Shown: positions 3,924 through 7,049 of the stretch, one piece after another
Numbering within the stretch: position 1 is the stretch's first letter
Layout: the number at the start of each line of letters is the position of its first letter
Source of the DNA: a virus
Lineage: Duplodnaviria > Heunggongvirae > Uroviricota > Caudoviricetes
IMG/VR virus record: IMGVR_UViG_3300014682_000012
DNA: 7,049 nt
Direction: 5' to 3' (one strand)
The notes under the pieces: model-generated
Told to the model about the DNA's origin: nothing
Databases searched by the model: none
The model's input: the letters and a program-made list of their open reading frames with translations, nothing else
Position numbers and translations under genes: made by a program

Positions 3924-4349
3924 TCAATGCACAGCCACAATATTTCCTGCAGGGCCACCACGATTCATCTGGTTGAAACCAGCGATCGCCACTGCGACAA
4001 AATCATCAGCGTCTCTCACCAGTCGTTCCCGCGTCTCCACTAGTTCCCGAAAATAGGCTGAGCTATGGCTGCGCATTCGGGCCACCAGCAGAGGTGGCAT
4101 TGCTTTTTCGATAGCTGGTAACAACGCCTGAATTTTTTTAACCGCATCAGGGGTGTCTTTCTCCACCCAGCGGAAAATTTTCTGAGTATTGCGAGCCATG
4201 GCTTCCGGATGGCTGTCGTCATACAGTTCCGGGAACGTCATTCCCAGCTCGAAATACGCTTTGGTAATTTTCGCAGCCGGTACTTTTTCGCCGTCCGGAT
4301 GCGCCCAGGCATTCATCGCCATGCGGATGTGTTCATGCTTGATTTTCAT
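3924..4349 (-). CDS. ydaT: YdaT-family protein (CII-like regulator position; historically annotated toxin YdaT), 141 aa
   Basis: ATG at 4349..4347 with GGGGG RBS 5-9 nt upstream (the track ORF starts further upstream at 4421). Begins MKIKHEHIRMAMNAWAHPDGEK..., which I recall as YdaT-like. Position immediately after the cro-like gene matches the Rac ydaS-ydaT arrangement. The start overlaps the end of the cro-like gene by 17 nt. Confidence 0.65.
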   Translation of the reverse strand: MKIKHEHIRMAMNAWAHPDGEKVPAAKITKAYFELGMTFPELYDDSHPEAMARNTQKIFRWVEKDTPDAVKKIQALLPAIEKAMPPLLVARMRSHSSAYFRELVETRERLVRDADDFVAVAIAGFNQMNRGGPAGNIVAVH

Positions 4350-4575
4350 GAATCCCCCCTTGGTTAGAAGGCGGATTATGATCAGAACCGGGAATGACAA
4401 CCGTCGGTATGTGTAACTCATATTTGAGCGCCCCGGCAGTGACTGCCTGAATTAGCAACGCCCATTTCCACGGAACCTCTTCCCCCCACATGCTGACTGT
4501 GGTTTTTGACGTTCCTAGAGCTGCGGCTGTTTTAACAACTCCGCCAAAATAGCCTAATACTTCTGATTTTTTCAT
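4333..4575 (-). CDS. Cro/YdaS-like small HTH regulator, 80 aa
   Basis: ATG at 4575..4573 with GGAG RBS 7 nt upstream (track ORF 4333..4617 has a longer, unsupported N-terminus). MKKSEVLGYFGGVVKTAAALGTSKTTVSMWG... is a helix-turn-helix signature. Divergent from the CI-like gene with a 91-bp operator/promoter region between them. Confidence 0.7.
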   Translation of the reverse strand: MKKSEVLGYFGGVVKTAAALGTSKTTVSMWGEEVPWKWALLIQAVTAGALKYELHIPTVVIPGSDHNPPSNQGGIHENQA

Positions 4576-4666
4576 GAGTCGCTCCATAAAACTGAACGCC
4601 AAAAGTTTAATAATCAAAACCGAAGAAAGTCAAGAAACAAAACCATCTGTGTTTTAAAATCAAAAC
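4576..4666. promoter_or_regulatory. Divergent immunity control region: putative PR-like promoter for cro, putative leaderless PRM-like promoter for cI, and three GTTTT/AAAAC inverted-repeat candidate operators
   Basis: Minus strand: -35 TTGACT (plus 4628..4633), 18-bp spacer, -10 TAAACT (plus 4604..4609). Plus strand: TAAAAT (4655..4660) ends 6 nt before the cI ATG at 4667, with no SD. Candidate operators AGTTTaataatcAAAAC (4604..4620), AAAACcatctgtGTTTT (4639..4655) and GTTTTaaaatcAAAAC (4651..4666) overlap these promoter elements. Confidence 0.5.
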
Positions 4667-5305
4667 ATGAGCAAGCAAACAATATCTGAACGCATAACCC
4701 AACGTATGCATGCGCTAAACCTGAAAGGCAAAGACCTTGTCAATGCCACTGGCGCATCAAAAGGCTCCGTAAGTCAATGGATGAACGGTGGAGGAGCGCC
4801 GTCCTCGCGTTACATAAGTTCACTGGCAAAGATATTGAAAGTAAACGAAAATTGGCTTCTTAATGGAGGAGAGTTAAATACAGGTGATTCGCTTGATCTA
4901 TCTTTACCGCCGATAAAAACGGTTCCGCTACTATCACTTCAGCAGGCAGCAAGCTGGAGTGATTATATGAAAAATTCCTCAATAACCTCTTGTGTGCAGC
5001 TTGTCGGAGAAATCCCGGCCAATACCTTTGCAGTTGTTCTAGAGAGTGACAGTATGTCAACATCTGGTGGGGGAGTTTCCATCCCAAATGGTTCAACAGT
5101 TTTTGTTGATCCCGATCGAACCGTACAACCAGGAAATATTGTCCTTGCCTTGCCCAAAGGGACCACAACACCTGTCATTCGTAAACTGGAGATTGAAGGG
5201 CCGGATATTCTTTTAGTCCCCACGAATCCTCGCTACCCTTCAATTATGCTGGATGATCTATCTTGCATATTGGGCGTATGCTTTAAAATTCAACAAGATA
5301 TTTAA
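4667..5305 (+). CDS. CI-like phage repressor, 212 aa: N-terminal XRE-type HTH plus C-terminal LexA/S24 peptidase-like autocleavage domain
   Basis: Complete ORF. HTH LKGKDLVNATGASKGSVSQWMNG. C-terminal domain with the Ser in VLESDSMS and the Lys in VIRKLEIEG at spacing consistent with the S24 Ser-Lys dyad. No SD before the ATG, consistent with a leaderless transcript as for lambda cI. Confidence 0.9.
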   Translation: MSKQTISERITQRMHALNLKGKDLVNATGASKGSVSQWMNGGGAPSSRYISSLAKILKVNENWLLNGGELNTGDSLDLSLPPIKTVPLLSLQQAASWSDYMKNSSITSCVQLVGEIPANTFAVVLESDSMSTSGGGVSIPNGSTVFVDPDRTVQPGNIVLALPKGTTTPVIRKLEIEGPDILLVPTNPRYPSIMLDDLSCILGVCFKIQQDI

Positions 5306-5418: not shown

Positions 5419-5596
5419 TCATTCATTCCCTCACCCCACCCCACAGAATGCAGGGCAATACTTCGAGTTACCAGGCAGTGGTCAGGGGTTAAGTAGCCAG
5501 CCCGAGGCGTAAGAACATGACGGCAGGGTTCAACTTTAATAACTATGCAGCAGGTTTTTGTTCCGCTACCCGGCGTTAAGGGGAAATGAGGTCAAC

Positions 5597-5752
5597 ATGG
5601 ATACTATCGATCTTGGCAACAACGAATCTCTGGTGTACGGCGTGTTTCCCAACCAGGACGGCACATTCACCGCGATGACGTATACCAAAAGCAAAACGTT
5701 TAAAACCGAAAATGGCGCCCGTCGCTGGCTGGAAAGAAACTCAGGTGAGTGA
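5597..5752 (+). CDS. ydfA: YdfA-like small prophage protein (DUF1391-type), 51 aa
   Basis: ATG at 5597 with GAGG RBS about 7 nt upstream (track ORF 5558..5752 has an unsupported N-terminal extension). MDTIDLGNNESLVYGVFPNQDGTFTAMTYTKSKTFKTENGARRWLERNSGE. Gene order ydfA-ydfB-ydfC matches the Qin dicB operon as I recall it. Confidence 0.7.
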   Translation: MDTIDLGNNESLVYGVFPNQDGTFTAMTYTKSKTFKTENGARRWLERNSGE

Positions 5753-5753
5753 T

Positions 5754-5882
5754 ATGGATTTCGACACAATCATGGAAAAGGCTTACGAAGAATACTTCGA
5801 AGGCCTTGCCGAAGGCGAAGAAGCTCTCAGCTTCAGTGAGTTTAAACAGGCGCTTTCCAGCTCGGCAAAATCTAACGGCTGA
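5754..5882 (+). CDS. ydfB: YdfB-like small protein, 42 aa (below the ORF-track size cutoff)
   Basis: ATG at 5754, one nt after the ydfA-like TGA, with AGGTGAG SD. MDFDTIMEKAYEEYFEGLAEGEEALSFSEFKQALSSSAKSNG; stop TGA 5880..5882. Confidence 0.6.
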   Translation: MDFDTIMEKAYEEYFEGLAEGEEALSFSEFKQALSSSAKSNG

Positions 5883-5911
5883 TAAGCGAAGCAGCACCGC
5901 GAGGAATCAGT

Positions 5912-6130
5912 ATGCAGAAACGAGAACCCGTCATCATCGCGCCAGACTATACCGATGATGAACTTTATGAGTGGATGCGCCAGAAAATTAATGCAGCGCA
6001 GGATCTGAAATGGGCCAATGAAGCCAGGGCTAAGCAGGCTGAAAATCTGTCCGCTCTGGAGCAGGATATCACCAGGCTGGAAAAAGCAGCGGCATTAAGC
6101 ATTGCCAGAATGATTACATACCCGCGTTAA
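5912..6130 (+). CDS. ydfC: YdfC-like small protein, 72 aa
   Basis: Complete ORF with GAGGAA RBS. MQKREPVIIAPDYTDDELYEWMRQKINAAQDLKWANEARAKQ... Position after ydfA/ydfB-like genes. Confidence 0.7.
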   Translation: MQKREPVIIAPDYTDDELYEWMRQKINAAQDLKWANEARAKQAENLSALEQDITRLEKAAALSIARMITYPR

Positions 6131-6265
6131 TAGCTAACCAACGAAGCTAAGGTTGGTAATTAAGGAGTTCTCCACGGGTGAGGTGGAGTGCGTGCGCCGG
6201 ACACGGGTGAGCATCCGGTACGTTCTTTAAAAATCTGGATAGTCCCAACTTATTTAAACGGTTAA

Positions 6266-6697
6266 TTATCTTGAGTTCATCCAGAACTTATTATTGCAAG
6301 CGGGGCAAAAAGTACGAAAATGAGCATCAAAGCGCATTATTTCCATTGGCTGAAGTACAGATATTACCTTTTTTCCAAAACATTGTGGGCAAAGATGCAC
6401 AGTTATCTCAGTATCGCCTATAAATTGCTTCTTGGAATATACAAGGGTTCCAGAATCAAGCTTGTTAAGCTTGTAACCTTCCGCCTGTCGCTGAAAATCT
6501 TCTGTCTCTGCAATTTTTGCTTTGAGATGCATTATCTCTTCATCACGAAAGCGGATCGCATCGCAAAGAGAGAAGCATTCCGCCTGAAGCGTGATTAGTT
6601 TGTTCTGAAGTTCAATAGTTGCGGCTTTAACTTCTGCATCCGTTTTTGCGTCATTAATAACCTTAGCGAGACCAGCTGTCTCCTTTATCGCAGCCAT
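6266..6697 (-). CDS. Hypothetical coiled-coil plus zinc-ribbon protein (about 143 aa), antisense to the dicB-type operon between ydfC and dicF
   Basis: Minus-strand ORF (track 6266..6826), most plausibly starting at ATG 6697..6695 (alternatively the in-frame GTG at 6724, or further upstream). Alanine/lysine-rich predicted helical N-terminus, then HLCPQCFGKK...FRTFCPACNNKFW (two CxxC pairs about 22 residues apart). GC about 40 percent, against about 55 percent in flanking DNA. Own promoter upstream. Confidence 0.5.
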   Translation of the reverse strand: MAAIKETAGLAKVINDAKTDAEVKAATIELQNKLITLQAECFSLCDAIRFRDEEIMHLKAKIAETEDFQRQAEGYKLNKLDSGTLVYSKKQFIGDTEITVHLCPQCFGKKVISVLQPMEIMRFDAHFRTFCPACNNKFWMNSR

Positions 6698-6737
6698 AGC
6701 CGCTGACAGTTCTGCTATCACGTTGAGTACTCTTCTC

Positions 6738-6790
6738 GTTGTTGGGGATATCCGGATTATACAAATTTCTTGTTGTTGGGGAATAACAGG
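6738..6790 (-). promoter_or_regulatory. Putative leftward promoter with extended -10 (TGTATAAT), flanked by two copies of an 11-bp direct repeat
   Basis: Minus-strand TATAAT at plus 6761..6756 with TG immediately upstream. Weak -35 (ATTCCC at 6784..6779). The repeat GTTGTTGGGGA on the plus strand (6738..6748 and 6772..6782) covers the predicted +1 and -35 regions. Confidence 0.4.
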
Positions 6791-6970
6791 AACCACCTCG
6801 CCTGACGTGGTTAAAAGCAGGCACACAACGCGAAAGCGTACGGCGAGGTAGCTGGTTTATAGATAGCCTGTCGTTAAATTTTCGTCGACCGTGCGCTTCC
6901 GGTTGTGGCACTCCGCGAAATGGCGCGGCGGTAAGTATGGCGGGGTTATTCCTTCCCCGTTGAGGACACC

Positions 6971-7008
6971 GGGTTGTCAGGTTGACCATACGCTTAAGTG
7001 ACAACCCC
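6971..7008 (+). other. 9-bp perfect inverted repeat GGGTTGTCA / TGACAACCC (20-nt loop) in the GC-rich structured leader just upstream of dicF
   Basis: Seen directly. Additional short stems at 6914..6929 (CCGCG/CGCGG) and 6941..6959 (CGGGG/CCCCG). Position suggests a processing or structural element of the DicF precursor. Confidence 0.4.
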
Positions 7009-7032
7009 GCTGCAACGCCCTCTGTTATCAAT

Positions 7033-7049
7033 TTTCTGGTGACGTTTGG
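7033..7049 (+). ncRNA. dicF: 5-prime end of DicF sRNA (partial; continues beyond window end)
   Basis: TTTCTGGTGACGTTTGG matches my recollection of the first 17 nt of E. coli DicF (UUUCUGGUGACGUUUGGCGGUAUCAG...). Location downstream of ydfA-ydfB-ydfC on the same strand matches the Qin dicB operon. Only 17 nt are visible. Confidence 0.5.

Follow-up and report, generated by a model that had tools for sequence, protein, structure and literature searches.

A covarying leader domain upstream of the DicF small RNA of a lambdoid prophage recurs in other temperate phages

INTRODUCTION

DicF is a small RNA (sRNA) encoded by the Qin prophage of Escherichia coli K-12, where it acts through Hfq-dependent antisense repression of ftsZ and other mRNAs (PMC5069750, PMC10448788). 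Its source is a polycistronic transcript initiated at dicBp, which lies upstream of ydfA (Ragunathan et al. 2023, PMC10448788). In that study, RNase III created the 5' end of a 190-nt species that accumulates stably in stationary phase, RNase E was needed for the 53-nt DicF, evidence for an internal promoter was not found, and both a terminated 1146-nt ydfABC–dicF transcript and a 1608-nt read-through transcript were described. The original work, as summarized by Balasubramanian et al. 2016 (PMC5069750), likewise assigns the DicF 5' end to RNase E; the 3' end is set by the terminator or by RNase III, the latter giving a 72-nt form (PMC5069750). Here we analyze the DNA that leads into DicF in a 7,049-nt stretch from a virus of the Caudoviricetes (IMG/VR record IMGVR_UViG_3300014682_000012), called the window below, and describe a conserved cloverleaf-like RNA domain at 6902–7016 together with an antisense gene upstream of it.

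For 35 years, work on DicF has treated it as a 53-nt RNA. The part that is released along with it, in the 190-nt form, is a discrete covarying fold, kept at the head of early operons in phages as different as lambdoids and P1. An earlier note on the window, made from the sequence alone, had recognized the start of DicF in the last 17 nt and a processed, multi-hairpin leader before it. Both are already known biology, and the former re-identifies a textbook prophage sRNA. What is new is the conserved leader domain, common to other phages, and the Rip1-type identity of the antisense gene.

RESULTS

A conserved folded domain precedes DicF

The domain occupies positions 6902–7016 on the plus strand. 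It is closed by helix P0 (6902–6909/7009–7016) and contains helices H0 (6913–6917/6924–6928), Pa (6930–6932/6968–6970), H2 (6941–6945/6955–6959) and H4 (6971–6979/6999–7007), as well as a putative pseudoknot, P3 (6935–6940/6986–6991). We aligned 99 distinct homologous copies (alignment A1), read the structure from compensatory changes and then tested it. In 95.4% of cells the proposed partners can pair, versus 34–56% when the partners are slid, and 15 pairs change on both sides, versus 3–10 with slid partners. None of 500 shuffles reached any of the observed measures. P3 and Pa each contribute one covarying pair (UA 89, CG 5, UG 5 for P3; UA 91, CG 5, UG 2 for Pa). The minimum free energy (MFE) structure of 6898–7020, computed from the single sequence, is exactly the nested part of this fold, and RNAalifold recovers Pa, H2 and H4. 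Loops of H2 keep UCCUU/CUCC-like motifs and otherwise vary freely. Most A1 copies were picked up with exact patterns of which the H4 loop is a part; the invariance of that loop, like the limited test of P3, is therefore in part built in. Phage copies derived from BLAST, which were not pattern-selected, show the same conservation. A conserved folded structure in 6902–7016 is thus well supported.

H4 corresponds to the 9-bp perfect inverted repeat that had been noticed before. The repeat is real, consisting of GGGTTGTCA (6971–6979) and TGACAACCC (6999–7007) around a 19-nt loop, and it ends 25 nt before position 7033. Both-sided changes occur in six of its nine pairs, for example GGGUAACCA/UGGUUACCC and GAGCUACCA/UGGUAGCUC. 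The core of the loop (CAGGTTGACCAT.CGC) is identical in every copy examined, most of these copies having been selected on that motif. The view that the leader holds at least three stems also stands: besides a long hairpin (6824–6846/6885–6907), it has hairpins at 6913–6928, 6941–6959 and 6971–7007. The description of the leader as GC-rich fared less well. Its GC content is above the mean, at 0.549 for 6827–7032 against 0.478 (standard deviation 0.054), but only mildly so, with 9% of equal-sized windows as high. Folding energies are modest, with z-scores of –2.57 for 6813–7032 and only –0.96 for 6898–7020. Support for the leader structure is chiefly comparative.

A covariance model of the domain (R1) scored the window copy at 154 bits and found one copy per locus; a second copy in the window, including the PR side, was not found. 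When the window, the P1 leader and contig L140 (see below) were searched with Rfam 15 (cmscan), no family matched the domain at E values up to 10 other than at chance level. Several other identities were considered and set aside. For a tRNA-like or tmRNA identity, ARAGORN was negative and the mascRNA match was at chance level. A resemblance of GGCGGTAAG to the RfaH ops element was rejected because U6932 covaries with 6968 as an RNA pair, the one noted above for Pa; the eighth base of GGCGGTAAG also differs from that of the ops sequence. Another inverted repeat, I1 (6940–6954/6996–7010), conflicts with the covarying helices H2 and H4. The Pas sRNA, the subject of a preprint, has no relation to the domain.

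The pattern of variation also bears on whether the leader codes for protein on the minus strand, where an open reading frame (ORF) of 122 aa (6663–7031) is listed and where hypothetical coding sequences lie under the match in the cdtI, pPE4, F1055 and 2H10 records. Close copies differ by 1-nt indels that shift the frame (CCCC versus CCCCC in H2), the variation is organized as compensatory base-pair changes, and the ORF has a TTG start. We regard such a coding role as very improbable.

The domain recurs in front of different seed/terminator cassettes

In a distant search of phage genomes, the segment ∼6902–7024 recurred without DicF. The domain is present at 89–93% identity in the cdtI, Stx2c and 2H10 phages, at 87% in a phage recorded as Actinobacillus phage, at 84% in Salmonella phage F1055, and at 78–82% in the ban-operon leader of P1 and P7, where GenBank carries the label 'dicF-like region'. 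Borders of homology coincide with P0 (∼6901–7016 for cdtI-type copies and ∼6913–7009 for P1/P7), and the flanks are otherwise unrelated. Across 264 loci, the domain always lies on the early-operon strand. In lambdoid phages its place is the early-left leader, a short way downstream of the repressor gene, at a median distance of 360–394 nt from that gene (327–394 nt in most loci). Other placements are after ydfA/B/C, or 52 nt after P1 dmt, the 3' end of which is overlapped by the C1-controlled Pban promoters. Downstream of it there is usually dicB or kil. In 243 of 252 loci, a terminator-like hairpin stands no more than 170 nt beyond the domain, in most cases 30–70 nt after P0.

Between domain and terminator lies an sRNA-seed segment that exists in several unrelated versions. 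At least five seed/terminator cassettes stand behind the domain: DicF, a GGCGGCAUCUG variant, a GGCGGGUAUCC type, the cdtI GGCGGUACCAG type and a GGUGGAAAUGG type. Such variety suggests that sRNA seeds are exchanged as modules while the leader in front of them stays constant. Differing cassettes were also seen in individual loci (L004, L011, L069, L157, L208, L129 and others), with GGCGGCATCTGTTTGCCCATGAACTGATGTCCGCC, for instance, replacing the DicF stem.

What might the domain do? Our tentative proposal, which we would place somewhat below an even chance, is that this ∼115-nt pseudoknotted domain represents a functional RNA class, so far unclassified, found in temperate phages of enterobacteria, with an active role, in terminator control or as a constant sRNA module, rather than being an inert precursor. 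One version of that role is possible though short of probable. It holds that the domain would serve as a maturation or stability scaffold, or as the independent functional half, of a modular prophage sRNA family, in which the folded 5' module stays constant and is followed by seed-plus-terminator cassettes that can be exchanged. The domain would then determine where RNase III and RNase E cut, or shield the 190-nt form; an action in trans, by way of the C/U-rich H2 loop, is conceivable as well. Consistent with this, the same domain precedes each of the cassettes listed above, the predicted processing sites bracket it (an RNase III cut ∼6 nt 5' of P0 and an RNase E cut 16 nt 3' of P0), the 190-nt species is stable in stationary phase (PMC10448788), and the H2 loops retain their pyrimidine motifs. 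Yet variants L197 and L218 have no terminator-like hairpin within 170 nt; in the F1055/L195 type the downstream hairpin has a large insert that contains a ribosome-binding site and a start codon, so this may not be an sRNA; and a 137-nt 5' fragment is not reported in PMC10448788 or PMC5069750.

In another version, rather unlikely in our judgment, the domain would be a cis-acting RNA governing the adjacent terminator, as a processive antiterminator like HK022 put or as an attenuator or riboswitch-like switch. It would decide between a terminated DicF-type sRNA and read-through into dicB/kil, exonuclease, xis and int. Such a role is compatible with the leader being a DicF precursor, to which it would add a function. 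The domain is a discrete module, bordered by P0 inside otherwise unrelated sequence, its strand and position in the early operon are constant, and a terminator-like hairpin nearly always follows. In the functional phage mEp460, an annotated N gene is absent from the operon comprising repressor, domain/dicF, dicB, exonuclease, xis and int. HK022 putL occupies an equivalent position and has the short motifs GCGCGGCGG and ACCAUGCG in common with the domain. Other observations fit less well. Unlike putL/putR, the domain is single at each locus and absent from the PR side; it lies ∼1 kb from the promoter in Qin-type operons; its distance from the terminator and the sequence in between are both variable, with no conserved antiterminator pairing seen; and K-12 shows substantial termination at the DicF terminator, as the 1146-nt transcript (PMC10448788). 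By eye, pairing of the P0 3' tail with the terminator 5' arm offered only weak 5–6-bp possibilities, and none in P1. Membership of the HK022 put family itself was rejected: blastn gave no similarity, R1 had no match in the whole HK022 genome, the fold differs and a PR-side copy is lacking. The two roles, in maturation and in terminator control, are not mutually exclusive.

The window ends within DicF

The last 17 nt of the window, TTTCTGGTGACGTTTGG at 7033–7049 (plus strand), are identical to the first 17 nt of annotated K-12 dicF (L002 2883–2899), as the earlier note had proposed. This sequence occurs once in the window, and 200 shuffles gave no match at two or fewer mismatches. These bases cover the seed region, with the single-stranded 5' seed UUUCUGGUGACGUUUGG identical to that of K-12; the other 36 nt lie beyond the window. 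A search of the window with Rfam gave no DicF match, as only 17 nt of DicF lie inside it.

The continuation was read in two related sequences, both of which proceed as GGCGGTATCAG... and contain a full DicF. One is L140, an IMG/VR contig found by scanning viral contigs with the junction sequence. It is 100% identical to window 6268–7049 (782 nt) and runs 535 nt further, reading ...TTTCTGGTGACGTTTGGCGGTATCAGTTTTACTCCGTGACTGCTCTGCCGCCATTTTT, with the DicF stem-loop and a Rho-independent terminator (hairpin and U-run), and then a dicB ORF. Against the Rfam DicF family (RF00039), L140 scores 73.4 bits, above the gathering score of 48, and so belongs to the family. The other is L001, an E. coli chromosome with 99.7% identity, in which DicF scores 76.4 bits; after it come dicB, as annotated, a DUF1482 family gene where K-12 has ydfD, and then an exonuclease gene, xis and int. 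DicB of L140 is 95% identical to K-12 DicB. DicF or a variant of it follows in each of the 126 loci that contain the final 79 nt of the window. Past 7049, we would expect GGCGGTATCAGTTTTACTCCGTGACTGCTCTGCCGCC, a T-run and dicB.

The rightward operon is therefore of the dicB type, as had been suggested: ydfA, ydfB and ydfC precede DicF in the window, and dicB follows in L140 and L001. The ydfA–ydfC region of K-12 Qin is 97.3% identical to window 5560–6221 (blastn), and the K-12 ydfC–dicF spacer is 96.2% identical to window 6813–7049, leading into dicF. Between these segments, 591 nt (6222–6812) replace 29 nt of the K-12 spacer and carry the antisense gene. Window 6100–7049 has a partial match in 4331 of 5426 complete E. 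coli genomes, but only 59 of the 5426 cover at least 80% of it. Gene order thus corresponds to that of a dicBF (Qin-type) early-left operon, with ydfA–ydfB–ydfC upstream and dicB downstream on the same strand, and a repressor with a divergent cro-like gene. We are highly confident that 6813–7049 is the distal ydfC–dicF spacer of such an operon in a lambdoid prophage.

Could the 17-nt match instead be coincidental or a remnant, in a region that is mainly DNA-level regulatory sequence (promoter or operators) of the antisense gene? The antisense ORF extends mechanically to 6826, and an inverted repeat (6795–6807/6837–6849) crosses the insert junction, as that reading would have it. It is already refuted by the complete DicF and dicB that follow in identical and near-identical DNA. 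Moreover, thousands of genomes without the antisense gene have the sequence right of 6812, PGAP calls the gene start at 6721, and 6756–6761 is the best –10 element. We regard this reading as extremely improbable.

Three further observations concern the wider occurrence of these sequences. A 2016 study found DicF/DicB in none of ∼2,000 phage genomes and proposed that they are retained mainly in defective prophages; we find a complete leader plus DicF in 21 sequenced phage genomes (records H26–H38, including vB_EcoM-606R7, Evi, mEp460_ev081, HannyBb and PPompW). Near-identical E. coli-type dicBF loci are present in L006, a metagenome-assembled genome (MAG) labelled Collinsella, and in L145, labelled Actinobacillus phage pPE4; these host labels probably reflect contamination or mis-assignment, not a wide host range. 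Finally, the dicF–dicB spacer of L140 (348–488, minus strand), beyond the window, has a sub-threshold match to STnc100, a prophage sRNA (38.8 bits versus a gathering score of 47, E = 1e-6).

Predicted RNase III and RNase E processing of the leader

That the leader belongs to a processed precursor agrees with the experiments on the K-12 sequence (PMC10448788, PMC5069750), to which 6813–7049 is 96.2% identical. The K-12 sequence shown in Figure S1B of PMC10448788 is homologous to the window from ∼6847 onward. A generic promoter scan found no sigma-70-like promoter in 5900–7049. The long imperfect hairpin at 6824–6907 (plus strand; arms 6824–6846 and 6885–6907), seen in MFE and alifold predictions, is a probable RNase III substrate; among 56 variants it shows only single-sided, pairing-compatible changes. 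A distance of 190 nt, measured upstream from the DicF 3' end, leads to K-12 L002 2746; in the alignment this is window 6896, within the 3' arm of this hairpin. We infer that RNase III would cut near 6896 and so form the 5' end of a 190-nt pre-DicF. On the other side of the domain, a single-stranded A/U-rich linker (7017–7032) ends at the predicted RNase E site, 7032/7033, a position set from the annotated dicF 5' end; RNase E dependence is taken from PMC10448788 and PMC5069750.

Together, these features suggest the following course. On derepression, transcription would start at a PL-like promoter downstream of the repressor gene, pass through ydfABC, cross the Rip1-like gene in antisense and enter the leader. 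RNase III would then cut the hairpin at 6824–6907 near 6896, leaving a pre-DicF of ∼190 nt. The base of this hairpin (6897–6907) and P0 (6902–6909) use the same nucleotides, so cleavage near 6896 should release GUUGUGG (6902–6908), which could then close helix P0 of the domain. Such a refolding from hairpin to P0 would fit cdtI-type copies, which lack the upstream hairpin and in which P0 is a perfect 8-bp helix. RNase E would next cut the linker at 7032/7033 to give the 53-nt DicF, whose 3' end would lie at its own intrinsic terminator just past the window. Polymerases that read through the terminator would express dicB.

Some points count against this account of a DicF precursor. Only 17 nt of DicF are present in the window, and the continuation comes from an identical or near-identical contig, not provably the same molecule. 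RNase III is placed at different ends in the two papers, at the 5' end of the 190-nt species in PMC10448788 and at the 3' end of the 72-nt species in PMC5069750. The RNase III site was located by length arithmetic, the base marked in the published figure being lost from the text copy, and cleavage sites in this strain are assigned by homology to K-12. Just upstream, the 591-nt antisense insert could alter processing relative to K-12, and the inverted repeat mentioned above spans the junction of insert and leader.

Several side observations relate to this region. In this variant, the 13-nt junction-spanning repeat (6795–6807/6837–6849) could pair in competition with the RNase III hairpin. A hairpin, AACCACCTC/GACGTGGTT, lies at the right edge of the insert (6791–6812). 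In L005 (2643–2772) and L011 (1628–1757), the segment between two CGCGAAA repeats (window 6830–6836 and 6914–6920) is deleted, and with it the RNase III hairpin loses its 3' arm and P0 its 5' strand.

The insert carries an antisense Rip1-like gene

The minus-strand gene within the insert (6266–6721, 151 aa by the PGAP start) is assigned to the Rip1 (ring interacting pore 1) family of anti-phage defence genes. Its product matches Rip1 (PDB 9oox) in a phmmer search with an E value of 6.1e-12 over residues 5–146, at ∼26% identity. An AF2 model (pLDDT 88.5) matches 9oox_M in Foldseek with an E value of 5e-7, probability 1.00 and TM-scores of 0.67/0.78. The protein falls in phrog_1244 (2e-51), and no Pfam or PADLOC model matches it. 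We found 152 homologues; the named ones come from Enterobacterales and related Gammaproteobacteria and bear the label hypothetical. In only ∼1% of complete E. coli genomes does a Rip1-like gene lie between ydfC and the DicF leader. The gene is a homologue of Rip1 of phage HK446 in sequence and predicted fold, and a defence activity is predicted on that basis.

The earlier note had also described the leader as overlapping the promoter region of this gene. The only perfect –10 element, TATAAT at 6761–6756 (minus strand), is outside 6827–7049 and inside the insert (6222–6812). Sequence right of 6812 is common to K-12, which lacks the antisense gene, and the remark about promoter overlap is therefore unsupported. 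A candidate promoter spans 6738–6781 (minus strand), combining this TATAAT with a weak –35 element and flanked by two 10-nt direct repeats, CCCCAACAAC (6781–6772 and 6747–6738), 34 nt apart. It was not called by the generic promoter scan. The TATAAT is likely, judging by its sequence, to be part of the promoter of the Rip1-like gene, and 6738–6781 may comprise both promoter and operator; the region is kept in L139, at 93% identity.

Context of the window

The window represents the immunity region of a lambdoid prophage. Upstream of the early-left (dicBp/PL-type) operon is a repressor gene (4667–5305, plus strand) with HTH_3 and Peptidase_S24 domains (Pfam, the latter at 2e-13), of the LexA/cI-like type, and divergent from it a P22_Cro-family gene (4333–4617, minus strand; Pfam). 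The first genes of the dicBF-type operon, identified from ORF translations, are ydfA (5597–5752), ydfB (5754–5882) and ydfC (5912–6130), all on the plus strand; ydfB and ydfC are annotated as such in L001. Further minus-strand genes, by ORF list and Pfam, are YdaT-like, replication, DUF977 and methyltransferase-like genes. Ten N at 990–999 (masked bases or a scaffold gap) fall inside a minus-strand ORF with a weak HNH-endonuclease match (756–1028).

DISCUSSION

The leader of DicF contains a fold whose occurrence extends well beyond DicF. If the domain controls read-through to dicB/kil and to the recombination and int genes, it would be a second case of early antitermination by RNA only, after HK022 put, in phages without N, and it would also explain the balance of DicF and DicB output. 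The locus further illustrates that a dicBF operon can host a Rip1-family defence gene in antisense. We infer that this orientation would let early-left transcription oppose the Rip1-like gene on induction, which suggests a simple way to silence a terminase-sensing suicide gene during the prophage's own induction.

Among the closest described systems is the dicBF operon of K-12 Qin. Both have the order ydfA–ydfB–ydfC, leader, dicF, dicB. The K-12 spacer lacks the 591-nt insert with the antisense Rip1-like gene and has 29 nt in its place. DicF itself has an identical 5' end, and its last base (annotated position 53, position 52 of the Rfam model) is A in L140 versus C in K-12. The immunity modules also differ, the repressor of the window being an S24-domain protein, not of the DicA type. 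DicA is described as lacking a RecA-cleavable bond (PMC10448788). The self-cleavage domain of the window repressor (4667–5305, plus strand) raises the possibility that this copy is SOS-inducible, unlike K-12 DicA.

Rip1 of phage HK446 is a single-protein defence that senses rings of the small terminase or portal, forms pores and causes abortive infection (PMC13434031). The window protein and Rip1 (9oox) have conserved CxxC...CxxC motifs in common, as well as a long helix at the N terminus with a beta-rich C-terminal domain after it, and a location in prophages. The HK446 gene lies between terminase genes, whereas that of the window lies in the immunity/early-left region.

Three leaders invite comparison with the domain and its surroundings. 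In the N-leader of phage lambda, a hairpin in the PL leader is cleaved by RNase III, which remodels downstream RNA and controls translation of N. An RNase III-cleaved hairpin in an early-left leader is thus a feature in common, but the sequences are unrelated, and the lambda element controls N translation where that of the window would release an sRNA precursor. HK022 putL and putR are likewise structured, promoter-proximal early-left RNAs upstream of terminators, in a lambdoid phage without N, and act by factor-independent antitermination via the zinc-binding domain of the RNA polymerase beta-prime subunit. Yet put consists of two adjacent stem-loops in ∼70 nt and occurs after both PL and PR, whereas the window domain is a closed multi-helix fold of ∼115 nt, in single copy and without a PR-side counterpart. 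The ban leader of P1 and P7 has the same conserved domain, with compensatory changes in H2, P3, Pa and H4, and an intrinsic terminator follows there too. It lacks the DicF seed, the upstream RNase III hairpin and dicB, and helix P0 is not evident; there the domain lies directly downstream of the C1-controlled Pban promoters and is followed by tRNA genes and ban.

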